From an uncultured Gammaproteobacteria bacterium (lineage in GTDB: Bacteria; Patescibacteriota; Microgenomatia; Daviesbacterales; UBA10151), in the NCBI GenBank assembly GCA_964360965.1, contig CAYHYM010000004.1, forward strand, positions 30,001 to 62,000: 32,000 nt of DNA. Reading direction: 5' to 3'. Below the pieces are notes generated by a model. That model saw only the letters and a list, made by a program, of their open reading frames with translations. It was not told where the DNA came from and made no database searches. Shown here piece after piece: positions 1,400 to 31,208 of the stretch; within the stretch, counting starts at the first letter, position 1; each line of letters opens with the position of its first letter. Made by a program: the position numbers and the translations under genes.

Positions 1400-2538
1400 G
1401 CGAGGGATAAATTGGGATCTGCCTGAAGTTTTAAAGGATTTGGGATGGGTTTTTGGAAAAATCCAGCTGCTGCAATCATGGCTCCGTTATCTGTACACAA
1501 GTCTGGTGGAGGAATATATAATTTAATATTTGAATTCAAACTGTCCACTGTAACCTGTAACCTGTCAACTAACTTTTTATTTGCAGCCACACCGCCGGCA
1601 ATCATGATATTTTTCACAGGATGAACTTTTAATGCCTGGATTACTTTTTCTACTAAAGATTCAACTATGGTATTTTCAATAGCAGCAGCCAGATCTTGCT
1701 TCACCTCCGAGGAGTCAAAGCCCACCTCGGAGGTGTGTACCAGGTTTGCTACTGCAGTTTTTAAGCCTGAATAAGAGAAATCAAAATCTTTTGATCCCTT
1801 CATAGGAATGGGAAGTTTAAATCTATTTGGATTACCTTTTTGAGCCAGTTTGGAAATTTCCGGTCCTCCTGGATAGGAAAGTCCTAATAATCTGGCACAT
1901 TTATCAAAGCACTCACCTGCCGCATCATCCCTGGTGCCACCTAAATAATCATACTTGCCATGACTGGTAAAAAGCACTAAATCCGTATGCCCACCTGAAA
2001 CCAGTAAGCCTAAACAAGGAAATACTGGTACTTCACCTCCGGGATGTTCTGTTTGAATCCAGTTGGCATAAAAGTGGCCAAGTAAATGGTTAACTGGTAT
2101 TAATGGTTTATTCCAAACTAAGGCTAGAGTTTTGGCTGTTTCTACTCCCACCAAAAGGGATCCAATCAGTCCTGGACCGTATGTGACAGCTATGGCATCA
2201 ATTTTCTTTATTCTGTCATCCCGACGAATGTCGGGATCCAATTCCGAACGTGACTTTGTTAATTGGATTCTCCTCGAGTCTGAGCGACCTCGGAGTCGAA
2301 GACCTGCATTCGCAGGAATGACATCGGGAAAGATTTGACTTAGTGCTTCCTCAATTACCGGAATAATGCTTTTGATCTGTTCCCTGGCAGCTTGTTCCGG
2401 AATAATTCCTCCATATTTGGCTTGTAAATTAGCTGATGATGCTACGACATTGGATAATATTTTTACTCCATCTTTATCCTTTATCAATATAGCAACTGCT
2501 GTCTCATCGCAACTAGTTTCAATACCGAGTATTATCAT
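1396..2538 (-). CDS. tsaD: tRNA N6-adenosine threonylcarbamoyltransferase TsaD (Kae1/Gcp family), carrying two in-frame GC-rich inserts
   Basis: MIILGIETSCDETAVA start, HLLGH metal-binding motif, VSGGHT and IAGGVAAN blocks are canonical TsaD. The segments VIPANAGLRLRGRSDSRRIQLTKSRSELDPDIRRDD and TSEVGFDSSEV are extra. Confidence 0.92.
   Translation of the reverse strand: MIILGIETSCDETAVAILIKDKDGVKILSNVVASSANLQAKYGGIIPEQAAREQIKSIIPVIEEALSQIFPDVIPANAGLRLRGRSDSRRIQLTKSRSELDPDIRRDDRIKKIDAIAVTYGPGLIGSLLVGVETAKTLALVWNKPLIPVNHLLGHFYANWIQTEHPGGEVPVFPCLGLLVSGGHTDLVLFTSHGKYDYLGGTRDDAAGECFDKCARLLGLSYPGGPEISKLAQKGNPNRFKLPIPMKGSKDFDFSYSGLKTAVANLVHTSEVGFDSSEVKQDLAAAIENTIVESLVEKVIQALKVHPVKNIMIAGGVAANKKLVDRLQVTVDSLNSNIKLYIPPPDLCTDNGAMIAAAGFFQKPIPNPLKLQADPNLSLA
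1702..1735. repeat. 34-nt GC-rich hairpin element (11-bp arms) inside tsaD, twin of 30849..30882
   Basis: CACCTCCGAGG-agtcaaagccca-CCTCGGAGGTG. Its reverse complement matches 30849-30882 at 33 of 34 positions. Confidence 0.85.
2212..2322. repeat. About 110-nt GC-rich multi-hairpin element inserted in frame in tsaD (boundaries approximate)
   Basis: Hairpins ATCCCGAC-gaat-GTCGGGAT (2218-2237), CGAC-ctcgga-GTCG (2285-2298) and CCTGC-attc-GCAGG (2303-2316). Clearly GC-rich compared with the flanking sequence. Encodes VIPANAGL...DPDIRRDD. Confidence 0.75.
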
Positions 2539-2566
2539 GCCGGTATTGTACTTTTTTATCCCAGAT

Positions 2567-2596
2567 TTGACAAATATCTTATAACCATGCTAGGAT
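2567..2596 (+). promoter_or_regulatory. Putative promoter for ORF 2607
   Basis: TTGACA (2567-2572), 18-nt spacer, TAGGAT (2591-2596). The ATG lies 10 nt downstream and there is no Shine-Dalgarno (SD) sequence. Confidence 0.4.
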
Positions 2597-2606
2597 TTGG
2601 CACAAT

Positions 2607-3299
2607 ATGACAAATATAGAGCTTCCTAAATATTATCCAGAAATTTCTTTAGCAGATGAGCTGGACAGACAAAGGCAAGAATCCACTGAAAGAGTAGCTG
2701 TCCCTTTAGGGATAGATAGAGCTACATTCCAAGTTAAACTTCCCTCAAAATGGCCTGAGAGGGGTAAAAATTATGATGAATATGCTCTAAAAGTTCCTTT
2801 AATCTCTTTGGATTTAACCCCTTTCGGTTTTAGCTGGTTACAGGTTACAGAAGCTGCTTTGTATTATGATCCGGAAAATCCTAATGAGGTAATTAAACCC
2901 TTTATTTGGGATGAGTTAAGGAAAACTGATAATGGCAAAGATCGGTTAAGGGTTTGGAGAGATCCCAGAAAGGGAATTGAGCCTTTTCCTCAAGTTCCTC
3001 ATGCTGTCTGGATTCAAGATGGGACCAGATATGCGCGGGGGCAATCACCCAGGGATGTCAGAAGAAATCTAAATGTTGTGGAAAGGGCAGGGGACCATTT
3101 TAAGGGTACTAGTTTGAACTTACTTCGCCCTGATATGTTTAAAAACATGTGGTGGTATTTTGTTGGTGGACAGCTTGGGTCCGGTGGCGTGCCCTATGGT
3201 TACTGGGATTCCGGGCCGGGGTTCGGTGCTAGCTGGGATGCCGATCCTTATGATGGCTTCCGCCCTCTTGTCTCTGGGAGTGAATATTCTGTAGCTTGA
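2607..3299 (+). CDS. Hypothetical protein (230 aa) with a Gly/Trp/Asp-rich C-terminus
   Basis: Long ORF divergent from tsaD. No family recognised. Confidence 0.55.
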   Translation: MTNIELPKYYPEISLADELDRQRQESTERVAVPLGIDRATFQVKLPSKWPERGKNYDEYALKVPLISLDLTPFGFSWLQVTEAALYYDPENPNEVIKPFIWDELRKTDNGKDRLRVWRDPRKGIEPFPQVPHAVWIQDGTRYARGQSPRDVRRNLNVVERAGDHFKGTSLNLLRPDMFKNMWWYFVGGQLGSGGVPYGYWDSGPGFGASWDADPYDGFRPLVSGSEYSVA

Positions 3300-3323
3300 T
3301 TCTTTTCGACGCAATTTTGTCGC

Positions 3324-3721
3324 TTAATCTATTTTAACAGAGTGCTCTTTTAGCCATTTGGAGATTTGTTCAACTGTTAAATTGCCATTGTCTACTCTAA
3401 CTGCAAACTCTACTTCTTCTTTATGTTGATTTATTAATTTATACTCATTTTTTTAAGGAATAAACCAGCTGAAGTTAAAGCGGCGCGTTTGTTGCCATCT
3501 ACAAAGGGATGATTTTTTAAAAGTGACTGTAGTAGGGCTGCAGCTTTGTCAAAAATGGAAATATATAAATATTCGCCTCCAAATGTAGCTTGTGGTCTAG
3601 CTACCGCTGATTCTACCAAACCCATGTCCCTGGTTCCTAAAGAACCGCCAAATCTTTTTACCATTTGATCGTGAATAAATAGAACCTGTTCTATTGTGAG
3701 AAAAATAATTTTTGTTTTCAC
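3324..3721 (-). pseudogene. doc: Doc (Fic-fold) toxin interrupted by a 1-nt frameshift in an A7 run
   Basis: ORF 3434..3721 carries the Fic/Doc motif HPFVDGNKRAA and stops at ...LFLKKMSIN*. The -1 frame continues as NEYKLINQHKEEVEFAVRVDNGNLTVEQISKWLKEHSVKID* down to 3324, a typical Doc C-terminus. The switch point is the T7 run on the + strand at 3448-3454. Confidence 0.75.
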
Positions 3722-3954
3722 CTATGGGAGAGTTCTTGTAAGACGTCTTTGTGATCTTCAATAAACTGATCCACCATTTTGGCGAATCTTACATCTACAC
3801 CAGGTATCTTGATTTTCTTTTGTGGAATTAAGGTAAGACCCTGATTTGTTTCTTTCCACTCAACCTTTGACCCATCCCGTATAGAAAGCTGGTGGGCATA
3901 GGCTTTAGGTACAGTAACTGCTAAAGAGTTACCATTTTTAAATACTTTTCTCAT
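3718..3954 (-). CDS. AbrB/MazE/SpoVT-type antitoxin paired with Doc
   Basis: KNGNSLAVTVPKAYAHQLSIRDGSKVEW is the SpoVT-AbrB swapped-hairpin signature. Overlaps doc by 4 bp. Confidence 0.75.
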   Translation of the reverse strand: MRKVFKNGNSLAVTVPKAYAHQLSIRDGSKVEWKETNQGLTLIPQKKIKIPGVDVRFAKMVDQFIEDHKDVLQELSHR

Positions 3955-3960
3955 GCCTTA

Positions 3961-3995
3961 ATGATACCATAAATGTACTGACAAGGTACTGACAA
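3961..3995 (-). promoter_or_regulatory. Extended -10 promoter plus tandem operator-like repeats for the antitoxin/doc operon
   Basis: Minus-strand TGGTATCAT (3969-3961) lies 6 nt from the ATG at 3954. GTACTGACAA occurs at 3975-3984 and 3986-3995, an 11-bp period. Confidence 0.4.
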
Positions 3996-4007
3996 ATTAA
4001 TGTGGGG

Positions 4008-4013
4008 TATAAT
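4008..4013 (+). promoter_or_regulatory. Candidate -10 box (TATAAT) for the nuclease gene
   Basis: TATAAT lies 8 nt upstream of the GTG start at 4022. No convincing -35 box. Confidence 0.3.
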
Positions 4014-4021
4014 ATTTCCCA

Positions 4022-4897
4022 GTGATTACTAAATCAAAACAGGAATATATTAAAAATGCTATTTATCTTTCCTATACTTCTTTAAATGATTTTTTGAAGT
4101 GTCCCGGGAGCTATTATTTAAAAAACATCTACAGAGATCCCAAAACCGGCTTTAGGATGCAGATTGCCTCACCTTATCTTTCTTTAGGTTCAACAGTCCA
4201 TGATGCTATAAAGTGGCATATAGAAATGGCAGGCCCGCTTCGACTCGCGTCGAGCGAGGCGAGACAGGTAACATATGAACAATTGGAGGGAAAATTTAGA
4301 AATCTATGGCTAAAATATACCGGTAAAAGAGGGGGTTTCTCCACCAAAGAAGATGAAGCAAGTTTTGGTAAGCGCGGCCTGTTAATGTTGGAGAATTTTT
4401 TTAGAAATGCCAAAAACTTGGAAGATAAACATCACAGTATAGAATTTCCTAAATACCCATTATTGGATAATGTAATTTTAATGGGGAATTTTGACTTTAT
4501 TGGGGAAAAAGAGGATCAGACCTTACATGTTGTGGATTTTAAAACCGGAGCAAATGATGAAAAAGATCCAATTCAGCTTTATATTTATGCCATTTTGGCA
4601 GAGGCTAATTTGGAAAAATCAGTTTCTTCAGCTTCATTTTGGTATTTGGACAGGGAAGATAAACCGCGTGATATAGTTTTAGATCCGCTGGAACCAAAAC
4701 TGGAATGGTTAAAAGAAAAAGCCACAGAGTTAAAAAAGGCAATTGGGGAGGGAATGTGGGTTTGTCCTTCGACTCGCTCCGCTCGCTCAGGATTATGTAG
4801 AGATTGTAGAGACTATCATGCCATTTTGGATGGAAAAGGTGAATTTCAATTTACTGATTATAGATACAAGAAAGATGTTTATTACCTTCCCAAATAG
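4022..4897 (+). CDS. PD-(D/E)XK nuclease, RecB/Cas4-like, with a Cys cluster
   Basis: GNFDFIG...HVVDFKTG (D...DxK) and QLYIYAIL (QxxxY) motifs. One N-terminal Cys (FLKCPG) plus C-terminal C-x10-C-x2-C. GTG start. Two GC-rich in-frame inserts. Confidence 0.7.
   Translation: MITKSKQEYIKNAIYLSYTSLNDFLKCPGSYYLKNIYRDPKTGFRMQIASPYLSLGSTVHDAIKWHIEMAGPLRLASSEARQVTYEQLEGKFRNLWLKYTGKRGGFSTKEDEASFGKRGLLMLENFFRNAKNLEDKHHSIEFPKYPLLDNVILMGNFDFIGEKEDQTLHVVDFKTGANDEKDPIQLYIYAILAEANLEKSVSSASFWYLDREDKPRDIVLDPLEPKLEWLKEKATELKKAIGEGMWVCPSTRSARSGLCRDCRDYHAILDGKGEFQFTDYRYKKDVYYLPK
4229..4267. repeat. GC-rich repeat fragment in frame in the nuclease gene
   Basis: ggcccgCTTCGACtcgcGTCGAGcgaggcgagacagg encodes GPLRLASSEARQ. 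Contains the CTTCGAC core shared with the other elements. Confidence 0.6.
4766..4792. repeat. GC-rich repeat fragment (CCTTCGAC...GCTCAGG type) in frame in the nuclease gene
   Basis: CCTTCGACtcgctccgctcGCTCAGGa encodes PSTRSARSG, between the first and second C-terminal cysteines. Confidence 0.65.
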
Positions 4898-4918
4898 TGG
4901 CTAGACTTCATGAGTAGT

Positions 4919-5350
4919 TTAACCTGTTTTTTTAGAATCTGGGATTATGACTGAAATAACAGGTTTTTGATCTAACAATTCTACCACAAAAAGCCCATGC
5001 AAAAGAGTGGCTGTTTTAAGCACTTGCTCAAGAGGGACTCCTGTTTCTTTGGCAATTTGTTCAGCAGGTGCGCTCCAATGATGATCTTTTAAAGAGCGGG
5101 TAAAAGCTCCCAAGGGCTGGTTTTTGTAAGCTGCCATTCTGGTAAGAAAAGCCAGAGGTTCTGCCAGTTCACTAAATGGCTTGGGGGCACAAGGTGTATC
5201 AGGTATGGGTACTTTAGTTAGATCAACAGGAACTGTTAATTGCTCAACAAGCATCATTTCTACTGTAGATCTATTTTCCAAGCTTGTCAAAAAAGCTGTT
5301 TGGTTAAGGTGAACTAGCCTCAAAAAACGTGAATTAATACCGCAAAACAC
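4919..5350 (-). CDS. Hypothetical protein; start uncertain (GTG at 5350, or the ATG pair about 31 codons in)
   Basis: ORF downstream of the hydrolase gene on the same strand. The C-terminal half looks helix-turn-helix-like (weak). Confidence 0.4.
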   Translation of the reverse strand: MFCGINSRFLRLVHLNQTAFLTSLENRSTVEMMLVEQLTVPVDLTKVPIPDTPCAPKPFSELAEPLAFLTRMAAYKNQPLGAFTRSLKDHHWSAPAEQIAKETGVPLEQVLKTATLLHGLFVVELLDQKPVISVIIPDSKKTG

Positions 5351-5387
5351 CTTAAATTCACGCTAAATTGACAAAAGTAAGTGAATT

Positions 5388-6221
5388 TCAGCTAAGTTGA
5401 TGGACCATGTCTTCTACCATTTCTCTAACTCTTGCTTGCTGAGGATAAGTTGAATCTTTATCTGAGACTGCTTTATCGCTTGTTAAAGCTACAAAGCTGT
5501 GTTCAATATATCTACGGTCTATAGATTGCAGATAACCTGCTTGATGGCAATAACTAAATCCATCTTGGGTAATATTACCATCTTTATGCCTAACAGTAAC
5601 CTCTTGACCACTTGCTGTAGCAGTTTTTCTAGTAGGGATCCATCTTAAAAACTTTTGGCCCAGATAATTATCTCTAACTAAAAAGCCTTTCCTAAACTCA
5701 TATAAAAATTGGCCTACATTTTGAGCTGTTGTTTCATTTAGTGTGCCTGATTCAAGATTTAAGATAGTAGTATCATGAAGATGCCAATTGGATAAAACAT
5801 CCTGTATTCTATTTCTACCTGCTACATCCGCTACCTTGGCAATTGCTACGTTATCAGAAAATTGAATAGAGTATCTTAGGAGATCTTCTAAAGTCTTTGT
5901 TGGCAGCATGTCCCTTCTAACAGCTTTGGACATAGCCCAGAGAGGAAGAAATTCTACTTTAAGTCTTCCAGTACCATGCATATTTTCCTGATACTCGTAA
6001 GGGGTAATATGATATCTTTGTTGTAAATCAAGCACCTCATCTTCTACTATTTTTAGAGCTACAGCCACTATAAAAAGTTTACCCAAAGAAGCAGCAGGTT
6101 GTTTCTCATGAGAATTGTATTCAGTAACTACTTGGTCAGTTTTTAAATTCTGTTGGAAGAAAGCAGTATGTAACTGACCATAAGTTTGTATACCACTTGC
6201 TTCTTTAATTGAGCCTGTCAT
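5388..6221 (-). CDS. Serine hydrolase with a class A beta-lactamase-like fold and no signal peptide
   Basis: SxxK (ASLGK), SDN (QFSDNVAIAKV) and a KTG-like HKDG motif occur in the expected order. Confidence 0.55.
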   Translation of the reverse strand: MTGSIKEASGIQTYGQLHTAFFQQNLKTDQVVTEYNSHEKQPAASLGKLFIVAVALKIVEDEVLDLQQRYHITPYEYQENMHGTGRLKVEFLPLWAMSKAVRRDMLPTKTLEDLLRYSIQFSDNVAIAKVADVAGRNRIQDVLSNWHLHDTTILNLESGTLNETTAQNVGQFLYEFRKGFLVRDNYLGQKFLRWIPTRKTATASGQEVTVRHKDGNITQDGFSYCHQAGYLQSIDRRYIEHSFVALTSDKAVSDKDSTYPQQARVREMVEDMVHQLS

Positions 6222-6286
6222 GGTTGGATTGTATCATAAAAGTTTAACTTCTGCTAAATTGTTATATTTGTGGAAGCCTACCTGTA

Positions 6287-6727: not shown

Positions 6728-6963
6728 GCGTAGTAGTCGTGATTTATAGATACATCCGTAGGAGAACCTTGTTGGCTGGGCATTTGTTCTGCCATCTTAG
6801 CCAGATCAAGTAAAGCCTGGGCATTGGATTTAGGGTGATTAATCTCCAAGCCCTTACTCAGGGCCTCTCTTATAATTTCAGCTTCAGCCTTATTCTTATC
6901 TTGAGCTATTAAGCTAATTCTTCTTCTGGTATCATCCGGGATGTGAACACTGATTCTTTGCAT
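6700..6963 (-). CDS. Ribbon-helix-helix (CopG-type) antitoxin
   Basis: MQRISVHIPDDTRRRISLIAQDKNKAEAEIIREALSKGL is an RHH signature. The start is placed at the ATG at 6963 because the -10 box lies inside the longer ORF-track call. Confidence 0.7.
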   Translation of the reverse strand: MQRISVHIPDDTRRRISLIAQDKNKAEAEIIREALSKGLEINHPKSNAQALLDLAKMAEQMPSQQGSPTDVSINHDYYAWGGEKRQK

Positions 6964-6972
6964 ATGTATTAC

Positions 6973-7001: not shown

Positions 7002-7201
7002 GTGCCCAACTTAACTTCAGCTAAAGTGTTGTGTTTATGAAATCCATTAGAGGGGATCGACTCAAATAGCTTAATCGACGATATCCGTATTGGATTAAAA
7101 GGCATGGCCATAAGTTTTTCCATTTCCACTTCTAATTTTTGATCTACTTTTAAATGGTTGTTGAGCTTGGAAATATTGAAATCTTCACTTTTGATAAAGA
7201 C
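6998..7201 (-). pseudogene. Relic 3' end of a thpR paralogue (67 in-frame codons, no start)
   Basis: Translates to ...FNISKLNNHLKVDQKLEVEMEKLMAMPFNPIRISSIKLFESIPSNGFHKHNTLAEVKLGT*, against the ThpR C-terminus HITIAKLNNHLKVDQKLEVEMEKLMAMPFNPIKISSIKLFESVPQEGFHKHNTLAEVKLV*. Positions 7092-7170 are identical to 12687-12765. Confidence 0.85.
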
Positions 7202-7223
7202 TTAAAAAAGTTAAGGTAAAAAT

Positions 7224-8980: not shown

Positions 8981-10711
8981 ATGGCATTAAAAAGAACTAC
9001 CCTAAGGATAGATGAAGACTTAAAAAAAGATACTCAACAGCGAGCCTTAGAGGAGAATACCACTCAACAAGAAATTCTCAATAGAGCTTTAAAGAAATAT
9101 TTAAGAACTGAGGTTCAGAAAGAGCTTGCTAGGGAAACAGTGGCCGAGCCACAGGAAGTAACTACAAAAAAGGCTAGTTCGAGTAAACCAGCAGATGTAA
9201 TTGATTTGATATTTAGCTCACTGGATATCGAAGCCAGGGGTTTTATTAAAAAGGGAGATTTGATAGATGCCCTTAATTTTAGAGGAATTCTAGAGGATGA
9301 CATTAGGATTAAAAATGTCATGGAGGCTTTGAGTAAAACTAATAAAGACGATGATATCCCCCCCCAAACCTTCCGCAGGATTGTTGGGCCGTACATTACA
9401 TTAATTGAAAAAGCCCTGACTGGTAGTCTGGTTATCCCCGATTTTAAGAATTTCTGTAGTTTTATTACTAATCTTTATAATCGCACAATTCAAAACAAAG
9501 ATGGCGAGGTTTCAGATTACATACCTGAGCTAAAAGGAGTTGACCCAAATAACTATGCTATTTCCATTTGTACTATAGACGGACAGAGATTTAATTTGGG
9601 AGATTACAATACTCCCTATCTAGCCCAATCTACTGCCAAACCCATAAATTATTGTCTGGCCTTAGAAGAGCACGGCGAAGAAGTAGTTCATAAAAAGATT
9701 GGCAGAGAACCTTTAGGCAAAGGTTTAAATCAGTTGACTCTAAACAGTCAAGGATTGCCGCATAATCCTTTAAATGGTACAGGAGCAATTATGTCGGCCT
9801 CCTTGATTGGCCAAGAACTTTCCCTGGAAGACCGTTTTGAACAGGCTTTAAAGAAATGGAAGTCGCTTTCCGGAGGAATTAATCCTGGATTTTCAAAATC
9901 AGCTTACGATTCAGCTAAACATGTTGCGGATAAAGATCTGGCGCTAGCTTATTTTATGAGATTGAATCAGTTGTTTTCCAAAGGATCAAATTTAGAAGAA
10001 TATTTGGACTTTCTGTTTAAATGCTTATCTATTGAAACTACCACTGAAGCTCAAGCAATTATTGCTGCCACTTTGGCAAACGCCGGAGTTTGTCCGACCA
10101 ATGGGGAAGCCGTGTTAAAAATGGAGACTACAAAGAATTGTTTATCTTTGATGTATTCCTGCGGTATGGAAGATTACTCGTCTGAGTTTGCTTTTGCAAT
10201 AGGACTTCCTGCTAAAAGCGGTATTTCAGGATCGATTATGATAGTTGTGCCTAATGTGATGGGAATTGCGATTTATTCTCCTAGGGTTGATAGTAATGGC
10301 AATAGTGTTAAAGGATTAGATTTATGTAATAAATTAATCCAGAGATTTAATTTTCATAATTACGATAGCTTAACTAAAAAACTGGATAAAATTGATCCCA
10401 GGCTTTTGAAAAATGAAAATAAAATGAGGGGCGTGATGGCTGTTTGTACTGCTGCTTCTCAGGGAGATCTATATGAGATCCAAAGGTTAGAGGCCTCGGG
10501 GGTTGCTTTGGATGAAGGTGATTATGATGCCAGAACCGGCATACATCTGGCAGCCTCGGAAGGTCACGAAGAGGTAGTTCGCTATTTTATTGAAAGAAGA
10601 GTGGATATTAACCCTAAAGACCGTTGGGGTGGGACACCTTTAGCTGATGCCATGAGAGGTAACCACACTGCGGTAATTGAACTGTTGGAGAAAAATGGAG
10701 CCAGGCTATGA
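8981..10711 (+). CDS. glsA: Glutaminase with animal-GLS-like architecture (EF-hand-like helical domain + glutaminase + C-terminal ankyrin repeats), fused to an N-terminal RHH/VapB-like DNA-binding domain
   Basis: N-terminus KRTTLRIDEDLKKDTQQRALEENTTQQEILNRALKKYL (RHH). Core blocks VIPDFKNF, DYIPEL, CTIDGQR, QSTAKPINY (SxxK), HNPLNGTGAI, ATLANAGVCP, LSLMYSCGMEDYS, GLPAKSGISGS, VVPNVMG, NSVKG, FHNYD. C-terminus DYDARTGIHLAASEGHEEVVRYFI...DRWGGTPLADA (ANK). Confidence 0.85.
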   Translation: MALKRTTLRIDEDLKKDTQQRALEENTTQQEILNRALKKYLRTEVQKELARETVAEPQEVTTKKASSSKPADVIDLIFSSLDIEARGFIKKGDLIDALNFRGILEDDIRIKNVMEALSKTNKDDDIPPQTFRRIVGPYITLIEKALTGSLVIPDFKNFCSFITNLYNRTIQNKDGEVSDYIPELKGVDPNNYAISICTIDGQRFNLGDYNTPYLAQSTAKPINYCLALEEHGEEVVHKKIGREPLGKGLNQLTLNSQGLPHNPLNGTGAIMSASLIGQELSLEDRFEQALKKWKSLSGGINPGFSKSAYDSAKHVADKDLALAYFMRLNQLFSKGSNLEEYLDFLFKCLSIETTTEAQAIIAATLANAGVCPTNGEAVLKMETTKNCLSLMYSCGMEDYSSEFAFAIGLPAKSGISGSIMIVVPNVMGIAIYSPRVDSNGNSVKGLDLCNKLIQRFNFHNYDSLTKKLDKIDPRLLKNENKMRGVMAVCTAASQGDLYEIQRLEASGVALDEGDYDARTGIHLAASEGHEEVVRYFIERRVDINPKDRWGGTPLADAMRGNHTAVIELLEKNGARL

Positions 10712-11013
10712 AAAGTGATATTAAGACAACCGGAGTAATGGCGCTTGACTGGGCAGCGGCTCAGGGAGATTTGCACGAGATTCAAAGGTTAGTCGCATCC
10801 GGCGCAGATTTGAACGAAGGTGATTATGATGGGAGAACCGCAATACATCTGGCAGCCTCGGAAGGACAGGAAGAAATTGTCAGGTATTTAATTGCGAAAG
10901 GTGTAAATATTAATCCTAGGGATCGTTGGGGTGGGACACCTTTAGCTGATGCCATGAGAGGTAACCACACCAAAGTTATAGAGCTTTTGAAAAAACATAA
11001 TGCACAGAAATAA
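10708..11013 (+). CDS. Stand-alone ankyrin-repeat protein, a tandem duplicate of the glutaminase ANK tail
   Basis: DYDGRTAIHLAASEGQEEIVRYLI...DRWGGTPLADAMRGNHTKVIELL. ATGA overlap with the glutaminase gene. Identical DNA blocks at an offset of 302 bp. Confidence 0.8.
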   Translation: MKSDIKTTGVMALDWAAAQGDLHEIQRLVASGADLNEGDYDGRTAIHLAASEGQEEIVRYLIAKGVNINPRDRWGGTPLADAMRGNHTKVIELLKKHNAQK

Positions 11014-12135: not shown

Positions 12136-12180
12136 TTACCCAAGTTTAACTTCAGCCAGAATGTTATGTTTATGGAAGCC
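12136..12180 (-). pseudogene. Second relic of the thpR 3' end (last 14 codons plus stop)
   Basis: GFHKHNILAEVKLG*, against ThpR GFHKHNTLAEVKLV*. Confidence 0.7.
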
Positions 12181-12595: not shown

Positions 12596-13162
12596 TCAAA
12601 CTAACTTTACTTCAGCTAAAGTATTATGTTTGTGGAAACCTTCTTGGGGAACTGATTCAAACAGTTTAATGGAGGAAATTTTAATGGGATTAAAAGGCAT
12701 GGCCATAAGTTTTTCCATTTCCACTTCTAATTTTTGATCTACTTTTAAATGGTTGTTGAGCTTGGCAATGGTGATATGAGGAATGAAACGACGTTCATCT
12801 GCTGTGAGCCTTAAAGTGGCCAAGCTATCTTTGATGCGCTCACGAATAAGTAAAATTTTATCTATATCCCCTTTGACTCCAATCCAAAGAACTTGAGGAT
12901 GGTGGAGGTTTGGAAATCCATCAATATAGGCAGGGGTAACTTCAAATGCAGGAATATTCGCTACAGCATTTCTGATAATTTCAACTAATTTATCCTTTAA
13001 TCCATCCGGTTGTTCTCCTAAAAAAGCTAAAGTCAGGTGAATTTTGTCTAAATCAGTAATTCTTACTTGAGTAATTAATGTATGCAATTTAGCTTGTATA
13101 GCTTGAAACTGCAATCTATTCTCTTTCGGAATTTCAAGTGCTATGAAAAACCTTATACCCAT
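12596..13162 (-). CDS. thpR: RNA 2',3'-cyclic phosphodiesterase (2H family, LigT/ThpR)
   Basis: Two HxTx motifs (HLTLAFLG and HITIAKL) at the expected spacing. Confidence 0.85.
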   Translation of the reverse strand: MGIRFFIALEIPKENRLQFQAIQAKLHTLITQVRITDLDKIHLTLAFLGEQPDGLKDKLVEIIRNAVANIPAFEVTPAYIDGFPNLHHPQVLWIGVKGDIDKILLIRERIKDSLATLRLTADERRFIPHITIAKLNNHLKVDQKLEVEMEKLMAMPFNPIKISSIKLFESVPQEGFHKHNTLAEVKLV

Positions 13163-17164: not shown

Positions 17165-17274
17165 AGGTAGACCTGTGAAGAGCCCTTCGACAAGGCTTCG
17201 ACGGTGAGTCTTTCGACCCTGAGCTCAAGACCGAAGGGCTCAGCCGAACCGCTCAGGGTAAACTCTGTCGAACC
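17165..17274. repeat. Intergenic GC-rich composite repeat with a long hairpin
   Basis: GAGCCCTTCG (17180-17189) pairs with CGAAGGGCTC (17232-17241). Contains CCTTCGAC, GCTTCGAC, GCTCAGGGT and CTGTCGAACC motifs shared with the in-gene elements. Confidence 0.75.
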
Positions 17275-18573
17275 ATGAAAAAAATTATTATTTTGGTTTT
17301 AGTTTTGGCCATTATTTTGGGAGTTTTAATATGGCGTTTTGGGCTGAGTAACAATTTAAAAAAAGTAGAGCCTGTTAATTTGACTTATTGGGGACTGTGG
17401 GAAGAAGAAAATTTGTTAAAACCTTTGATTTTAGAGTATCAAAAACAAAATCCCAATGTGACAATAAGTTATGTTCGGCAATCATCAATCAATTATAGAA
17501 CCAGGGTTCAGGCTCAAATCAAAGAGGGGGTGGGGCCTGATATTTTTAGAATTCACAACTCCTGGCTGGGCATGTTTTTAAAAGAGGACAGTTTGGCTCC
17601 TGCTTCTGATGTGTTTACTCTAGCTGATTATAAAAATACCTTTTATCCTGTGGCAGCTGATTCTTTTATAACAGCTGATGCCATTTATGCAGCGCCCATG
17701 GAAGTTGATGGACTGGCCCTATTTTATAATGAAGACATGTTAAACGGGATCAACGGAAAACCACCTGAGAATTGGCAAGAATTTATAGAGATAGCCTTCA
17801 AAATGACTGTCCGGGATGCATCAGGAATAAAGACAGCAGGCGCCAGTTTAGGAACAGCCTCAAATGTTGATCACTTCTCGGATATAATAGGGTTGCTACT
17901 TTTACAACAACCTGGTGTGGATTTAACAAATGTGGCAACCCTTCAAGTTGCGGAGGTTTTAAGATTTTATACAGGCTTTGTGACAGATCCAGGGAAAAAA
18001 ACTTGGGATGTCAATTTGCCTTCCTCAACTCAGATGTTTATAGAAGGACGCTTAGGTTTTTATTTTGCACCTTCTTGGAGAGCACATGAGATAAGAGTGG
18101 CCAACCCCAATTTGAAATTTAAGGTGGCACCAGTTCCACAGCTGGCAGGCAGGACAGTTGCTTGGGCTTCTCTTTGGGGTGAGGCTGTATCCAAAACCAG
18201 TAAGAATAGGGAGGAAGCCTGGAAATTTGTCAAATATTTAACATCTGCTGAAGCTCAAAAACTTTTCTATACCGAGGTCTCAAAAGTAAGGTTTTTTGGG
18301 GAGCCTTATTCAAGGGTGGATTTGGCAGGGGAGATCTCGGAGGATCCTGTTGCAGGGGCTTTTGTGTCCCAGGGCCCGTATTATAAATTCTGGTATTTAT
18401 CATCCAACACCTATGACAACGGAATAAATGATGAGATGATTAAATACTGGGAGGATGGCATAAATGCCACCCTGGCTGGAACAGATCCACAGGTGGCCTT
18501 ACAAACTGTGGAGAAAGGTGTAAAACAGGTGCTGGATAAATATACCAAAGCTGCTACTCCAAACACAAAATAA
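17275..18573 (+). CDS. Extracellular solute-binding protein (ABC transporter family 1, sugar type) with no adjacent permease
   Basis: N-terminal TM/signal anchor followed by typical SBP_bac_1 blocks (LTYWGLWEE..., PDIFRIHNSW, YAAPMEVDGLALFYN). Confidence 0.7.
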   Translation: MKKIIILVLVLAIILGVLIWRFGLSNNLKKVEPVNLTYWGLWEEENLLKPLILEYQKQNPNVTISYVRQSSINYRTRVQAQIKEGVGPDIFRIHNSWLGMFLKEDSLAPASDVFTLADYKNTFYPVAADSFITADAIYAAPMEVDGLALFYNEDMLNGINGKPPENWQEFIEIAFKMTVRDASGIKTAGASLGTASNVDHFSDIIGLLLLQQPGVDLTNVATLQVAEVLRFYTGFVTDPGKKTWDVNLPSSTQMFIEGRLGFYFAPSWRAHEIRVANPNLKFKVAPVPQLAGRTVAWASLWGEAVSKTSKNREEAWKFVKYLTSAEAQKLFYTEVSKVRFFGEPYSRVDLAGEISEDPVAGAFVSQGPYYKFWYLSSNTYDNGINDEMIKYWEDGINATLAGTDPQVALQTVEKGVKQVLDKYTKAATPNTK

Positions 18574-26246: not shown

Positions 26247-26260
26247 TGTCATTCTGTTTG

Positions 26261-27193
26261 TTATACCCCCAAGTAATAGATAATTCCCACCACCATTGAA
26301 ATCCATAAAATTACGGTAATAAGCAGAGGTTTGTCAGTGATCAAAACCCGCTCAGGAGATTCCCCTTCTTTTTTCTCATAGATGATATATAGATATCTCA
26401 TTACTCCATAAATCACCACCGGTACTGTAGCCATTAAATATTTGGCTTCGGTAATAGGAATATTAAGTTCGTCAAAAAGACTGGTGATTGGTCCTTTTAC
26501 CAAAATCGGCGGTTGCAGAAAAGCAAAAAATGCGTATGTTAGCCAGGTTGAATTGGCAAACATAGAGGTTAATATGTCAAGCAGATTTTCCGGATAATAA
26601 AGAAGCGTTTCACGGTGTTTGGGGGCATGTTGTTGCATCAGGGTTCTTTCTGATCTTCTTTTCCCTATGGCCAAAAAAAGAGCGAAAGAAATAATTGACA
26701 GTAAAAACCAGACGTTAAGATGGGCATCAGTTACCCAAATTCCGGCAAATACCCTTAAAACAAATCCTGCGGCAATTACCATCACATCAAGCAGGATAAT
26801 CTGTTTAAGATACGCGGAATAAAAAAGCTGCAGGATCAGATAAAGTAGTGAGGCTATGAAAAAAAGGGGGGATAAATTATAAGATAAGGGTAAAAGGATA
26901 ACTATTAATATCAGGGATATAAAAACCGCAACTTGAGGAGGGATTATGCCTTGTGCAATTGGTCTTCTTTTTTTAAATGGATGGTTCCTATCTCTTTCAA
27001 TATCAAAGACATCATTTAAAAGATAGCTGGCTGATGAAAGTCCGCAAAATATTAAAAAAGCAAAAATGGCCTTATTTTGATAAATAGGGTCAAATAAAGA
27101 TCCTGAAAATATTAAACCTGCAAAAATAGCAAAGTTTTTTACCCATTGTCTGGGTCTTGTCGCTCGGATAAGTCCCCAAAAAAATTCAACCAC
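26261..27193 (-). CDS. UbiA-family prenyl-phosphate phosphoribosyltransferase (decaprenyl-phosphate 5-phosphoribosyltransferase-like)
   Basis: RPRQWVKNFAIFAGLIFSG and YLLNDVFDIERDRNHPFKKRRPIAQG (NDxxDxxxD), with multiple TM segments. Confidence 0.7.
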   Translation of the reverse strand: MVEFFWGLIRATRPRQWVKNFAIFAGLIFSGSLFDPIYQNKAIFAFLIFCGLSSASYLLNDVFDIERDRNHPFKKRRPIAQGIIPPQVAVFISLILIVILLPLSYNLSPLFFIASLLYLILQLFYSAYLKQIILLDVMVIAAGFVLRVFAGIWVTDAHLNVWFLLSIISFALFLAIGKRRSERTLMQQHAPKHRETLLYYPENLLDILTSMFANSTWLTYAFFAFLQPPILVKGPITSLFDELNIPITEAKYLMATVPVVIYGVMRYLYIIYEKKEGESPERVLITDKPLLITVILWISMVVGIIYYLGV

Positions 27194-28182
27194 AAAATCC
27201 CTCCCAATATAATTGTTGCCACCAAAACAGCGGCAAATAATTTACCTTTGCTGTCTAAAGTTAAAGCAATTGCTCCCAGAATAGCACTTCCCAATATATA
27301 AAACAAGGTAATCTGCCTATGGGATAGCCCTAAATCAAGTAAACGATGATGCAAATGGTTTCGATCTCCCCAAACAGGAGATTTACCGGATAAAATTCTC
27401 CGGAAAAAAGTATAGACAAAATCAGTAGCAGGGACAAGCAGGGTTAGTAAGGCTGTTGCCAACTTTGCCCCGGATAAAATAGACAGAGTGGCAATTAAAA
27501 ATCCAAAAATAGTGGAACCGGAAAAACCGGGGAAAATTTTGGCAGGGTACCAATTCATTATTAAAAACCCCAAAGCGCTGCCTGCTGTTGCAAACGCCAA
27601 TTTGGTGACTGTCAGTTGGTTGGGGTCACCATCAAGATATAGTTTGAAAGATAAAAGTCCTAAGACCAGCGCGGTAATTACTACAATCCCGGGCATTTGG
27701 CCATCTACCCCTTTTGACCAGTTAATCATATTCATCACCCACACAATCCAAAGAAGAGTTAGAAGATTTCCAACTGTCTGGTCAAGGGGAATGATGCCGC
27801 CTAAGGGATTGGTTATAAAGTTAATAGTGGTGCCGGTGCCAACAATGATGATGGCTGCTATAAACTGGGTAAGCAGTCTGATATAGGGAGAAAAATTTTG
27901 ATATTTATCATCCAAAAGTCCAGTTATGAGCAGTATCAAAATTCCCAGCACAAGCCCAATAATTTGTTTTTCCAGAGGAATAAATAAAATAATGGTAATG
28001 ACAATGCCAATAAAACAGGCCAGCCCCCCGGCGCGAGGCACTATTCTTTTCAAAACTCTTCCCGGATGAGGTCGTTTGCGGGGATCATCCAAAAGTGTAA
28101 ACCGGCGGGCAATTTTAATGGTGGGGAAAATGGAAATTAAGGTAATGACAAAAGCAATTGTAAGAATTATTAAAAGGATCAT
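27139..28182 (-). CDS. Polyprenyl-phosphate sugar-1-phosphate transferase (MraY/WecA, GT4 family)
   Basis: IPRAGGLA, LLDDKY, NMINWSKGVDGQ and HLHHRL blocks in a polytopic membrane protein. Confidence 0.8.
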   Translation of the reverse strand: MILLIILTIAFVITLISIFPTIKIARRFTLLDDPRKRPHPGRVLKRIVPRAGGLACFIGIVITIILFIPLEKQIIGLVLGILILLITGLLDDKYQNFSPYIRLLTQFIAAIIIVGTGTTINFITNPLGGIIPLDQTVGNLLTLLWIVWVMNMINWSKGVDGQMPGIVVITALVLGLLSFKLYLDGDPNQLTVTKLAFATAGSALGFLIMNWYPAKIFPGFSGSTIFGFLIATLSILSGAKLATALLTLLVPATDFVYTFFRRILSGKSPVWGDRNHLHHRLLDLGLSHRQITLFYILGSAILGAIALTLDSKGKLFAAVLVATIILGGILWLNFFGDLSERQDPDNG

Positions 28183-28183
28183 T

Positions 28184-28525
28184 TTAGATAAAGATGGTAA
28201 TAATTTTTAAGCCGGTTATAAAAAGGACTATATCAACCACTGCTGTGGAGATGATAAGGATGCGTTTGATAAGAAACTGAGACGGGTGAAGCTGAAGGTA
28301 TAGCAGGATATTACATAAGCTAATAAGGGCAATATTGGCTGGTAAGATTAAAAATTGCAGTTTTTGAGTAAGTTGAGCCTCTCCCCATGAAAGAGAGTAA
28401 AAAAGAGGCAGTTTTGCCGGTAAAAACGCATAAAAAATCAGCAAGATTAAACAAAGAAGTAGCGAGCAAGCGATAGAAAATAGAATAGGCAATGTTAGGT
28501 ATTTATCTTTACGAGCTAAATTCAT
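28184..28525 (-). CDS. Small polytopic membrane protein (113 aa)
   Basis: Hydrophobic ORF translationally coupled between the GT2 and GT4 genes. Confidence 0.5.
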   Translation of the reverse strand: MNLARKDKYLTLPILFSIACSLLLCLILLIFYAFLPAKLPLFYSLSWGEAQLTQKLQFLILPANIALISLCNILLYLQLHPSQFLIKRILIISTAVVDIVLFITGLKIITIFI

Positions 28526-30306
28526 TAGGTAGCCCTTACTCTTACTTTGGTGGTGACGCGAAATTTTAAATACTTCCCAAACATCATTGATGTTTGGGCA
28601 TCAAGGGCTGGGAGGGTGGAGATGGTGACAATGATAATAGGTATCAAAACCCACTGAATATAGGACCATAGTTTTTGTAAGATAGACCAAGACTCCGGCC
28701 TTTTGGGAACCGTTTTTTCGTGGACATAGATGGTGGCAAATATTCCCAAAAAGGCGATAGTTAATATCCAGGAGGAGATAAACGGCAGGTTATAAGAAAC
28801 TACAGATTGAGCATAGTCAGGATTAATCAATGGAATAAGCAGTCCGGCAAAAGTGACAAATAAAGCCAAGATTCCCCAGCGCAAATAACCCCAAACGACA
28901 AAAAGCAGTTTATCTGTTTTATCCCAAAAATCCAAATCTTTATTTTTAAAATACTGTTTAACAATAAAAGGAATGTGTTCTACCCCATAAGCCCAGCGTT
29001 TTTGTTGTAAATATTGATTTTGTAGAGTCTTAAATAAAGTGACATCCAAAACCGCATCGGCGGAGATGGGTAAAAAGTGGGGGATCACTTTGTAGTCTCC
29101 TTTAAAATGAAAGTAAGCCTTCCAATAAAATCCGGAATCATCATTAACTTTATCGGGAATCCACAGGCCCACATTCAGCAGAGATTTTAGATTAATAGAC
29201 AAAGAGGCAAAATTCATATATTTATCAGAGCCCACCATCTCTGATAACTGCCAAAATGAAGTACCTGCTGCCATCAGTCTCATGGGGGTAGGTACCTGCC
29301 AATAGTTGTTATGATATAAAAACATTCCGGTGTAGCTTCTTTTATCACGAATGTTGGCCGGGGTGGACAGATACTTGTGCAGCGCTCCGGCTAAAAATTG
29401 AGGATGAATCACAAAATCAGCATCTAAAGTGGTAACAATTACCTGTTCCTCTTTGATGCCTAATTTTTTAAACTGCTCCACGGCATTATTAATCATGTAA
29501 TTTCTATTAGTTCCCGGGCCTGGTATTTCTCCAGGTAAACCAAAGGGGTGGATGGTGGTAAAGACTCCACCGATCTTTTGGCTTAAGTTATTCAAGTAAG
29601 TTTGAGTTTTTTTAATTTTTTCCGGATCATTTTGATACTCTCTTTCCTCAAAACCTACTGCTAAAAATATTTTATCTTTGGGATAATTAGCAGAAACAAC
29701 GGCATCAAAGACTGGCAGCACCACCTCTAAAGGTTCTTTATAAGTGGGTACGGCAATTAAATGATAGTAATTTTGCCAATTGTCAGAAAAATCTTTATCT
29801 AATTTTTGTAGCCAGTTTTGTTTTTTGGCTTCTTCCATCTTTCTATAACCGATGATGATCAAAACTGCTATTTTTAAAGAGCTAATCAGCCAATAAATAT
29901 CGGCCAAAAGTATCAGATATGCCACTGCAAAAGGTAGAGTAAATGATAACCAGATGGGAGAGGTGAGGGCAATCCAGGTTAGAGCTCCCGGGAATATCTC
30001 TAAAAACCTCTCTACTGTTGTTTCATGTTTTCTGACAAAGTCTTTTTCTAACTTTTCTGAAAAAACAAAACTTTCTCGCAGCAAATGATGAACGATCATC
30101 CCTATACCGGAACCGGTCATGAAGATAGATAACAGAGTGCGGCTGGGGTCACTGATGATGATTTCTCCCAAAAAGAGGATTGTCAGTCCGGTTAGTACTA
30201 ATATTAAACCTAGGACACTGCGGTGTAAGTGCCGTCCTCTTAAGATTACCTCTGATAGGTAAAAGGAAAGTACGCCACCAAGAATAAAAAAGAGAACGAT
30301 TCTCAT
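28525..30306 (-). CDS. Membrane-embedded family 2 glycosyltransferase (processive synthase-like)
   Basis: TTLDADF (DxD) and QQKRWAYG (QxxRW) motifs flanked by N- and C-terminal TM bundles. Confidence 0.75.
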   Translation of the reverse strand: MRIVLFFILGGVLSFYLSEVILRGRHLHRSVLGLILVLTGLTILFLGEIIISDPSRTLLSIFMTGSGIGMIVHHLLRESFVFSEKLEKDFVRKHETTVERFLEIFPGALTWIALTSPIWLSFTLPFAVAYLILLADIYWLISSLKIAVLIIIGYRKMEEAKKQNWLQKLDKDFSDNWQNYYHLIAVPTYKEPLEVVLPVFDAVVSANYPKDKIFLAVGFEEREYQNDPEKIKKTQTYLNNLSQKIGGVFTTIHPFGLPGEIPGPGTNRNYMINNAVEQFKKLGIKEEQVIVTTLDADFVIHPQFLAGALHKYLSTPANIRDKRSYTGMFLYHNNYWQVPTPMRLMAAGTSFWQLSEMVGSDKYMNFASLSINLKSLLNVGLWIPDKVNDDSGFYWKAYFHFKGDYKVIPHFLPISADAVLDVTLFKTLQNQYLQQKRWAYGVEHIPFIVKQYFKNKDLDFWDKTDKLLFVVWGYLRWGILALFVTFAGLLIPLINPDYAQSVVSYNLPFISSWILTIAFLGIFATIYVHEKTVPKRPESWSILQKLWSYIQWVLIPIIIVTISTLPALDAQTSMMFGKYLKFRVTTKVRVRAT

Positions 30307-31208
30307 GCCTTAATTATGCCAATTTTGCTGACGTTTTGCCACATCTGATCCACAATTTGATCAATTGGTTGATTTTTTATCCGGGCAATTTCTTTAACCA
30401 CTTCTAAAACATAGGCAGGTTCGTTTCTCTGTCCCCGTTTTGATTGTGGCGGTAAAAAAGGAGAATCAGTTTCGATGGTAATTTTTTCCAAAGGTAGGAT
30501 CCTGGCGGCTTCTTGTAGATATTCATTTTGGGGATAGGTGATATTGCCGGCAAAGGAAACCAGGAAATTAGTTTGCAGTATGCGGTTGGTAGTTGGTAGT
30601 AAGCCACTATAACAGTGGTAAATACCAAAGTAGTCTTTTGTCATCTTCAAGACTTCATCCCAGGCCGAAGGAGACGAAGTCTCCGCAGGTGGTGAGCCAC
30701 TCGGCACTGAGCTCACGGCCGAAGTGCCTGTCGAACCGCTACTTTTTGATCTGTCATCCCGGCAGTGAACAATTAAAGGAAGGTTAAGTTTTTTTGCTAA
30801 ATCAATTTGAGCTTGGAAAAGCTGCCTTTGTAGGTTTTTAACAATAAACACCTCCGAGGTGGGCTTTGACTCCCCGGAGGTGGAGAAAGCATAATCCAGG
30901 CCGCACTCTCCAACAGCTACTACTTTATCTACATTATCTAAATATATTTTTTCTAAACTTTTTATATCTTTTTGGATAGATATGTCTAGGTTATCTTTAT
31001 ACTTAACTGCCTCATGAGGATGAATGCCAATCGAAGAATAAAATTTTAATTTGTTAGAATTTAACTCTGCTGCGATTTTGGAAGTTTCAACATCTACACC
31101 AATATTAATGATAATGCCTACATCAGCATCTAAGGAATGTCTAATCACTTCGTCAAAGTCTTGTTTAAAACTATCCCAATATAAATGTGCATGAGTATCA
31201 ATTAACAT
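30303..31208 (-). CDS. tatD: TatD-family metal-dependent hydrolase/DNase with two in-frame GC-rich inserts
   Basis: MLIDTHAHL, GECGLDY, IVHCRD, IYHCYSG and ETDSPFL blocks. The extra segments are SSGSTGTSAVSSVPSGSPPAETSSPS and TSGESKPTSEV. Confidence 0.88.
   Translation of the reverse strand: MLIDTHAHLYWDSFKQDFDEVIRHSLDADVGIIINIGVDVETSKIAAELNSNKLKFYSSIGIHPHEAVKYKDNLDISIQKDIKSLEKIYLDNVDKVVAVGECGLDYAFSTSGESKPTSEVFIVKNLQRQLFQAQIDLAKKLNLPLIVHCRDDRSKSSGSTGTSAVSSVPSGSPPAETSSPSAWDEVLKMTKDYFGIYHCYSGLLPTTNRILQTNFLVSFAGNITYPQNEYLQEAARILPLEKITIETDSPFLPPQSKRGQRNEPAYVLEVVKEIARIKNQPIDQIVDQMWQNVSKIGIIKA
30663..30740. repeat. 78-nt GC-rich composite element in frame in tatD
   Basis: GGAGAC-gaa-GTCTCC (30670-30684), GTGAGC...GCTCAC (30692-30716), direct GGCCGAAG at 30663 and 30717, and CTGTCGAACCGCT shared with 17264-17273. 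Confidence 0.75.
30849..30883. repeat. 34-nt GC-rich hairpin element inside tatD, twin of 1702..1735
   Basis: CACCTCCGAGGTGGGCTTTGACTCCCCGGAGGTG matches the reverse complement of the tsaD copy at 33 of 34 positions. Confidence 0.85.

Follow-up and report, generated by a model that had tools for sequence, protein, structure and literature searches.

The stretch of DNA analysed here, the window, comprises 32,000 nucleotides (nt) of an uncultured bacterium (positions 30,001 to 62,000 of contig CAYHYM010000004.1, assembly GCA_964360965.1). Within it, two genes, tsaD and a tatD/ychF-family gene, each contain a copy of a GC-rich 34-mer that folds into a hairpin, and this 34-mer is one member of a dispersed repeat family of groundwater Microgenomates from the candidate phyla radiation (CPR). 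We consider it fairly probable, at about 0.65, that this 34-mer forms the hairpin core of a selfish palindromic repeat of Microgenomates, non-autonomous and 36 nt in length, akin to repetitive extragenic palindromic (REP) sequences and Rickettsia palindromic elements (RPE). Apparently, this 36-base hairpin is a miniature, undescribed counterpart of the Rickettsia elements in a new phylum; no description of such elements in CPR/Patescibacteria was found in full-text searches of the literature. Its distinctive features are the 12-codon unit and the exchangeable loops between palindromic arms.

As the initial annotation of this DNA had claimed, the two copies are near-identical and inverted: the 34-mer at 1702–1735 of the plus strand equals the reverse complement of 30849–30882 at 33 of 34 bases. 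A comparable repeat pair was found in none of 100 dinucleotide-preserving shuffles of the window, and with a repeat finder the match lengthens to 45 nt, at 91% identity. The element has a GC content of 65% versus 38% for the window and 41% for the loci. Copy A of the 36-nt element (1700..1735, plus strand) reads TT followed by CACCTCCGAGG-AGTCAAAGCCCA-CCTCGGAGGTG, lies antisense to tsaD and has a perfect 11-bp stem. Copy B (30849..30884, minus strand) reads TC followed by CACCTCCGGGG-AGTCAAAGCCCA-CCTCGGAGGTG and lies in the sense orientation in tatD. Folding gave each copy an 11-bp stem, in line with the arms of about 11 bp proposed initially, and a 12-nt loop; energies computed for RNA lie between −20.5 and −23.8 kcal/mol (z −3.2 to −4.7), and for DNA the perfect copy gives −12.1 kcal/mol. 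A single G.U (G.T) pair in the sense strand of the tatD copy stems from one A>G change. The 13-nt arm occurs five times in the window, against 0.15 expected, and four of these occurrences are in the two hairpins.

Both copies are located within minus-strand open reading frames (ORFs), in opposite orientations relative to the mRNA. The ORF at 1396–2538 is TsaD (TIGR03723, E 2e-112), a gene with three hypervariable insertion sites, and the one at 30303–31208 is a TatD/YchF-family hydrolase (TIGR00010, 6e-63) with two; the closest relatives of both proteins are Daviesbacteria-like. Reading frames continue uninterrupted across both copies, yielding HTSEVGFDSSEVK in TsaD and STSGESKPTSEVF in TatD, and so the strands, orientations and open frames given initially were borne out. 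In AlphaFold models built on orthologue alignments, both peptides map to loops, the kind of placement that the initial annotation had proposed to look for. The peptide of copy A, (H)TSEVGFDSSEV(K), occupies TsaD residues T269–V279 between helices 257–268 and 277–305, in a model with a predicted local distance difference test (pLDDT) score of 81.6. That of copy B, STSGESKPTSEV, occupies TatD residues S109–V120 between strand 96–105 and helix 118–141, with a local pLDDT of 67–75 in a model of 83.9 overall.

It had also been claimed that the element is an insertion in both genes, and here the two hosts differ. For TatD the claim stands: homologues of known structure (PDB 1j6o and 2gzx) are 11 residues shorter exactly at the element, that is, the canonical protein lacks the segment, and within the clade P0127 and P0130 fall short by about 10 residues there. 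For TsaD it needs correction: the proteins of Escherichia coli and Salmonella are only 3 residues shorter at this point, and among orthologues of the clade some have a loop 7 residues shorter while that of others is much longer. The tsaD element is not a simple net insertion, and its site is a hypervariable helix–helix loop already filled in other taxa.

The initial annotation took the unit to be 34 nt. A 34-nt insert cannot keep the reading frame, and the repeated unit is instead the 34-mer plus a conserved 5' T-Y, i.e., 36 nt or 12 codons, with STSEESKPTSEV as the commonest peptide. In the window this dinucleotide is TT at 1700–1701 and TC on the minus strand at 30883–30884. When the flanks of 74 copies are aligned in the direction of the loop, 52 have T at position −2 and 65 have C or T at position −1. 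No copy has C at position +1, the 3' side is otherwise unconserved, and the flanks contain no conserved tetranucleotide. Target-site duplications are absent at widths of 1–4 nt, all of which are at chance level, flanking dinucleotides being equal in 12 of 73 cases versus 10.5 ± 2.5 expected. The boundaries of the element are fixed only to within about 2 nt, since the pairs of filled and empty sites are all at most 77% identical. Each arm is itself a 13-nt palindrome (CACCTC-S-GAGGTG), and the two arms are therefore both inverted and direct repeats of each other.

The search for further copies, which the initial annotation had suggested, was highly productive. A scan for the arm pair (CACCTCCGAGG N3-30 CCTCGGAGGTG, one genome per species) detected at least 118 loci, mostly in low-GC metagenome-assembled genomes (MAGs) of Microgenomates; among the loci listed there are Daviesbacteria, Curtissbacteria, Beckwithbacteria, Roizmanbacteria, Gottesmanbacteria, Woesebacteria and Levyibacteriota. 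A loop-anchored metagenome scan with GAGGAGTCARAGCCCACCTC returned 92 stretches. Together with the earlier loci, these gave 75 distinct flanking contexts for this 34-mer itself, or about 73 after removal of two native MiaB matches, and the wider family exceeds 190 arm-pair copies. The approximately 73 unrelated flanks originate from many independent assemblies and different continents, and the source genomes are Microgenomates or other MAGs, none of them Rickettsia. NCBIfam assignments add ten hosts to TsaD and TatD: GAPDH, YchF, AspRS, MiaA (with two copies), the CCA-adding enzyme, TopA, PurL, TrpRS, LeuRS and UvrA. Neither of the two outcomes that would have overturned the initial annotation came about, further copies being plentiful and canonical TatD being devoid of the segment.

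Copies fall in ORFs of at least 80 amino acids in 63 of 74 cases (85%), close to the 89.8% found for random 34-nt windows from the same loci, and thus genes are not avoided. Within the ORFs, 41 copies are sense and 22 antisense. The frame encoding TSE is used by 51 of the 63, and no copy is read in antisense frame 0, the only one that contains a stop codon; since copies at orthologous sites depend on each other, such frame counts, like the covariation counts given below, overstate the number of events. Among the loci listed, hairpin lengths are mostly 34, 37, 40, 43, 49 and 52 nt, that is, 1 modulo 3, and the loops fall into classes of 12, 14, 15, 18, 21, 27 and 30 nt, with the arms common to all.

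Several matches deserve separate mention. Those from Rubrobacter, Streptomyces and other GC-rich organisms were judged unrelated and dropped by a GC filter. The same 11-bp arms, enclosing AT-rich loops of 8–11 nt, also form perfect palindromes, mostly intergenic and in several copies, in unrelated phyla: in Calditrichia MFD00709 (L022, L029, L034, L074, L088), in Anaerolineales HSG24/25 (L039, L040, L045, L076, L084) and at loci L025, L067, L093, L105 and L111. These same-arm hairpins of 31–33 nt from Calditrichia, Anaerolineales and others, being mostly intergenic, were left out of the family count; they may reflect convergence (the arms resemble Shine–Dalgarno and anti-Shine–Dalgarno sequences), a shared enzyme or chance. 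At loci L182 and L204 (JAEEGL01 contigs), a 20-mer identical to the loop core plus inner stem belongs to a native MiaB-like motif, LMREVGFDSSFMFKYSERPGT, which may be mere coincidence or a clue to where the loop sequence came from. Finally, a number of low-GC 'binchicken' MAGs (L085 on CAZJNI010000001.1, L009, L013, L030, L032, L041, L043 and others) are titled 'uncultured Gammaproteobacteria/Pseudomonadales'. At least one MAG labelled Gammaproteobacteria has a TsaD (P0009) and a TatD (P0132) of Microgenomates type, 77% and 64% identical to the respective proteins of the window, and the labels of these low-GC MAGs look wrong.

Covariation in the stem was scored on the seven outer base pairs left free by the search pattern. 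Double changes at these pairs keep pairing in 35 cases and break it in 5, and 496 of 525 cells are paired, versus a shuffle mean of 446 ± 4 and a maximum of 459 in 2000 shuffles. Pairing ends exactly at the element boundary, flank positions pairing at chance level only. Hence, the 11-bp stem is kept by compensatory changes, and the hairpin is needed or, at the least, maintained. Counted in the sense of the mRNA, the mismatches comprise 9 G.U and 7 A.C, which gives no signal for action at the RNA rather than the DNA level. The single compensatory series in TatD, where orthologue P0124 has a compensating C and thus a G-C pair at the position of the G.U in the window, is for this reason only anecdotal.

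Comparison of orthologues bears on the age of the copies. The TsaD genes of loci L120, L083 and L169 carry an identical element with identical junctions; L120 shares 73% identity with the window gene overall and 40 of 40 nt across the element. Similarly, in TatD the same site holds the element in P0125 and P0124, orthologues with 67–68% identity overall and 37 of 39 positions identical across it. Recent activity had been deduced from the near-identity of the two copies in the window, a deduction that is not secure: where orthologues keep identical copies between flanks that have diverged by about 27–33%, near-identity is no proof of it. Over long divergence, copies thus either remain identical or are made anew. 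At the same time, five TsaD proteins closer to that of the window than P0020 is do not have the 34-nt element, and such patchy occurrence indicates turnover rather than simple vertical conservation.

Traces of this turnover are found at several sites. At TsaD site 3, the site of copy A, the window, L120 and L083 belong to the 34-nt class and some other orthologues to a 37-nt class. The closest relative, P0002, has an element of the 49-nt class at this site, with the same junctions as the 34-nt element of the window (CA/CACC..GGTG/AA, slashes marking the junctions). In P0084, from the same sample as the window (Hainich groundwater H51, 0.1 um), the same 34-mer lies in the opposite orientation two codons away. 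At variable site 2 of tsaD, after ANWI, the window contains a solo arm (2034..2046; CATCCCGGAGGTG in gene sense, encoding HPGGE) with two mismatches to CACCTCSGAGGTG. This arm appears to be the remnant of a full hairpin, as full hairpins (HLRGE..HLGGE) occupy the same site in P0005 (40 nt, net +42 nt) and P0084 (49 nt); the site is empty in P0036 and holds a perfect solo arm in P0002. Orthologous filled and empty sites differ by exactly 36 nt between L115 and L173 and, in PurL, between L152 and L005, and the copies that survive lengthen loops by exactly 12 codons. Decayed copies (HTFEVKKSSYTSKVK) show GC>AT changes. At the YchF locus, strains L160 and L219/L220 are more than 99.5% identical over 1.8 kb. 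They differ by a recombination tract of about 350 nt, about 20% divergent and centred on the element site, which replaces the element by a different GC-rich insert of 105 nt. These strains also differ by a clean 24-nt in-frame indel (PFGFAQG to PFGLSSTPLTAGAQG) in another GC-rich repeat, which is direct evidence of recent turnover of small inserts.

Such evidence induces us to propose the following scenario. A trans-acting enzyme would copy the element, recognising the folded hairpin in single-stranded or cruciform DNA; candidates might be an HUH/Y1 transposase related to REP-associated tyrosine transposases (RAYT) or to those of IS200/IS605, or else a structure-specific nuclease whose cut is mended by copy-repair. 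The element would insert next to T-Y, and selection would retain only in-frame copies in tolerant surface loops, with the hydrophilic TSE-frame peptide being favoured. Afterwards, recombination between the direct-repeat arms could leave solo arms, and gene conversion among members of the family, for which the arms supply the homology, might both swap loops and keep the copies uniform. AT-biased decay would erode copies, and homologous recombination between lineages could transfer whole loop alleles.

Several points weigh against a selfish repeat. Firstly, the copies in place show much stronger conservation than the synonymous sites next to them. This would not be expected of an insert that is purely selfish and decaying; the model therefore has to include gene conversion, re-insertion or some host function as well, and it is the long-term uniformity of the copies that needs explaining. 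Secondly, joined-flank BLAST of all fetched loci revealed no clean filled/empty polymorphism of the element between near-identical strains, the pairs found being at most 77% identical, and the sole polymorphism of the element at YchF is an imported recombination tract, not a transposition event. Thirdly, no transposase, integrase or HUH protein was found in Pfam scans of 30 ORFs of the window. To this one has to add that the 5' T-Y may be part of the element or of its target, and that dependence among orthologous copies inflates both the frame and the covariation counts.

Other sources were considered and set aside. The ORFs adjoining non-coding copies are ordinary short-gap neighbours. Matches of the arm pattern to viral contigs of IMG/VR numbered zero, and a phage vector was rejected on this ground. 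Searches of the window with Rfam 15 (at the gathering threshold) and with ARAGORN returned nothing, which disposes of an origin from a known RNA or tRNA.

Among the rival explanations, a DNA-level signal under molecular drive is unlikely in our estimation. A dimeric protein would bind or cut at the 13-nt arm, which could be the target of a homing-type endonuclease, a signal for uptake or recombination, or a site for nucleoid proteins or gyrase as proposed for REP sequences. Biased gene conversion or uptake would keep restoring perfect copies and spread them to orthologous loops of other lineages. Such a drive would fit the exact palindromic arms common to all loop classes, the elements of different classes at identical junctions, the identity of copies despite deep divergence, the transfer of loop alleles between lineages by homologous recombination, and the recurrence of the 11-bp arms in intergenic palindromes of Calditrichia and Anaerolineales. 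However, solo arms are far rarer than pairs of arms round a conserved loop (two pairs and one degenerate solo arm in the window), and the loop is copied along with the whole 34-mer, which a 13-nt signal would not need. Moreover, no candidate protein was identified, and the viral contigs yielded no copies.

A bolder version, to which we give an equally small chance, is a self-renewing cassette system in which the palindromic arms serve as recognition sites for an enzyme or for biased gene conversion, the loops are exchangeable cargo and orthologous copies are continually rewritten and held perfect even between lineages in which the codons alongside differ by about 30%. Were this true, a molecular drive would be systematically remodelling the surface loops of essential CPR proteins, and the arms seen in Calditrichia and Anaerolineales would point to a mechanism crossing phyla.

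It is also tempting to suppose that the hairpin benefits the host as an mRNA element, selected for a role in the transcript such as translational pauses between structural units or mRNA protection. One arm is a perfect Shine–Dalgarno sequence (GGAGGTG), and the other, CACCTCC, matches the canonical anti-Shine–Dalgarno sequence at the 3' end of 16S rRNA. The hairpin is practically the same in either orientation and stable at −20 to −24 kcal/mol. Conservation at the nucleotide level, including the loop, at orthologous sites with 67–73% identical flanks, the covariation of the stem and the G.U intermediate found in TatD next to its compensated form are all in accord with this supposition. Nevertheless, the mismatches in the sense strand show no asymmetry (the 9 G.U versus 7 A.C given above), and compensated variants such as CACCTGGGAGG/CCTCCCAGGTG and CACCCCCGAGG/CCTCGGGGGTG abolish the Shine–Dalgarno and anti-Shine–Dalgarno sequences yet spread, both of which weaken it. 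Patchiness among orthologues, with the five TsaD closer than P0020 that do without the 34-nt element, also speaks against an mRNA function, as do the solo arms and decayed copies, the 15% of copies that are non-coding and the absence of a function common to the hosts. We regard it as improbable, somewhat more so than a DNA-level drive. Lastly, the notion that there is no element, only native loop sequences alike by chance or convergence or an assembly artefact, can draw on the TsaD loop present in other taxa and on the 20-mers of L182 and L204, which lie in native MiaB of canonical length (EVGFDSSF) and prove that chance identity with the loop core occurs, but it is practically negligible, being refuted by the shuffles, by about 73 unrelated contexts round an identical 34-mer in many independent assemblies, by the flank profile, by the frames preserved in well-identified genes and by filled and empty orthologous sites differing by exactly 36 or 42 nt.

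Returning to the selfish palindromic repeat, among its nearest analogues are the Rickettsia elements, to which the initial annotation had compared it. That comparison holds in so far as the repeat is dispersed, in frame and found in either orientation. In the summary of Ogata et al. (2000) given in PMC10969869, elements of the RPE-1 type are about 150 bp long, encode a conserved peptide and are confined to Rickettsia. As far as that summary goes, the likeness extends to palindromic repeats in frame in unrelated housekeeping genes (63 of 74 copies in ORFs here), a small AT-rich host genome, extra peptides at positions compatible with the fold and several families per genome. The difference lies in the size, 36 nt or 12 codons instead of the 100–150 bp, with peptides of 30–50 amino acids, of the RPE-1 type. 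In addition, the Microgenomates element is used in either orientation and in more than one frame, and there are sister elements that have the same arms round other loops. Judged by its length and host, the element is not an RPE-1 member.

REP sequences are a further analogue. The short RPE-4 and RPE-6 of R. conorii have themselves been assigned to REP-type elements (Di Nocera et al. 2013, PMC3733652). According to the same work, the GTAG/CGTC superfamilies of REPs measure 20–40 bp, with stems of 5–13 bp and loops of 2–20 nt, and are mainly extragenic, downstream of genes; Opitutus terrae and R. conorii have intragenic REPs, and genes for replication and repair, uvrA for example, are prominent among those affected (PMC3733652). 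Our element is a single GC-rich hairpin within this size range (11-bp stem, 12-nt loop); target-site duplication is absent in both, and some intragenic copies of both lie in replication or repair genes, UvrA and TopA being among the hosts here. In contrast to REPs, it has no unpaired GTAG/CGTC tag, the T-Y being its conserved unpaired bases; about 85% of its copies lie within genes, in contrast to the mostly extragenic REPs; it does not as a rule form head-to-head dimers; and no RAYT was found in the window, to which that search was limited.

Short GC-rich palindromic clusters in AT-rich genomes are also known from mitochondria. Those of yeast, the GC clusters, end in AG/TAG repeats that are regarded as target duplications; the 'byp' elements of Magnusiomyces disrupt the reading frame, and the ribosome skips them (PMC8811140). 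With the cluster of yeast var1, our element has in common in-frame insertion polymorphism, variable loops, merging or nesting and recombination hot spots. The yeast clusters are mitochondrial and have terminal duplications, while the Microgenomates element has none. As for byp, the frame is open in both window copies and in 85% of all copies; the open frame together with the biased choice of frame argues, as far as sequences can tell, for translation rather than bypass.

Like miniature inverted-repeat transposable elements, the repeat is small, non-autonomous and dispersed, with inverted-repeat ends. It differs from them in the absence of target-site duplication, in a length far below the usual 50–500 bp and in being one whole hairpin rather than terminal inverted repeats round a core. 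The small dispersed repeats of cyanobacteria, reported by Elhai and colleagues in 2008, are likewise very short, imperfect palindromes of about 21–27 nt, dispersed and nesting in coding and non-coding DNA, but they belong to another phylum and have another sequence. Neither a strong in-frame 12-codon organisation nor shared palindromic arms are known to have been described for them. An intrinsic terminator was rejected, as the copies lie inside genes and positions +1 to +3 are only 35–53% T, and so was a repeat of the CRISPR type, as the copies are single, dispersed, 29 kb apart and inverted.

Proteins of CPR/Patescibacteria are known for unexplained lineage-specific insertions. In-frame families of GC-rich hairpins of 24–50 nt offer a concrete DNA-level source for some of them, in loops of essential enzymes: TsaD, TatD, aminoacyl-tRNA synthetases, GAPDH, TopA and UvrA. 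The 'selfish DNA inside genes' of Rickettsia would then extend to a second lineage with reduced genomes, in the smallest unit yet (12 codons), and provide a tractable case for how REP-like hairpins move without an obvious RAYT. From a practical point of view, such repeats can give rise to chimeras in metagenome assembly and to false alignments of proteins, and may serve as recombination and strain-tracking markers in groundwater Microgenomates.

The two host genes contain further inserts. Variable site 1 of tsaD (approximately 2209..2343, minus strand) is filled by a composite GC-rich insert of the VIPANAG..DPDIRRDD or VIPANAG..DPRLRGDD type, about 34 codons longer than in P0005 or P0036, with pLDDT below 50 for residues 77–105; a 21-nt core of it is common to L112 and L068. 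Nested within this insert lies a 33-nt GC-rich hairpin of a different family (2269..2301, minus strand; CTTCGACTCCGAGGTCGCTCAGACTCGAGGAGA, LRLRGRSDSRR). An exact 33/33 copy is found in a Nudix hydrolase gene (L125, 11901–11933) among further GC-rich repeats, and the hairpin is a second in-frame mobile family; its different arms and its own exact copy elsewhere rule out a degenerate copy of the 34-mer. In tatD, a second GC-rich composite insert, SKSSGSTGTSAVSSVPSGSPPAETSSPS, lies at approximately 30666..30749 of the minus strand and includes a GGAGAC-TTCG-GTCTCC hairpin. It is about 20 residues longer than in most orthologues (pLDDT below 50 for residues 154–171), and orthologues show absent, short (10 residues shorter) and long forms, pointing to nested insertion; no second copy of it was found in the fetched loci.

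Finally, we would like to mention other repeats of the window. A short GGTTACAGGTTACAG or 'LQVTVDS' motif is located at 1533–1562 and 2836–2865 and in the TsaD orthologues P0005 and P0036; within TsaD genes it recurs at site 1, at site 3 and close to the C-terminus, it is also present in the neighbouring ORF, and is possibly another small repeat family. The PD-(D/E)XK nuclease gene at 4022–4897 has two GC-rich islands, 4228–4268 and 4764–4793. The latter (CCTTCGACTCGCTCCGCTCGCTCAGG, with a 'SLRLASLAQG'-like peptide) has copies of 92–97% identity in seven other loci, including site 1 of the L120 and L083 TsaD genes. An intergenic GC-rich repeat at 17214–17265 (CGACCCTGAGCTCAAGACCGAAGGGC...) precedes a solute-binding protein gene at 17275, and exact copies of its first 26 nt are found in L135 (two) and L175 (one).

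A 39-nt gene-end motif encoding GFHK(H/Y)NxLAEVKL and then a stop codon is present in four direct copies of 74–85% identity (6240–6278, 7007–7045, 12142–12180 and 12602–12640). One copy is the true C-terminus of a LigT-like gene (12596–13162), and another is within a 175-nt partial duplicate (7008–7182 versus 12603–12777). Between the copies there are toxin–antitoxin modules (PIN, MazE/Fic) and glutaminase/ankyrin and asparaginase genes, a pattern that looks like serial island integration duplicating an attachment site. Lastly, a 290-nt tandem duplication with 76% identity (10407–10696 versus 10709–10998) covers the end of the glutaminase–ankyrin gene and the following small ankyrin-repeat ORF.

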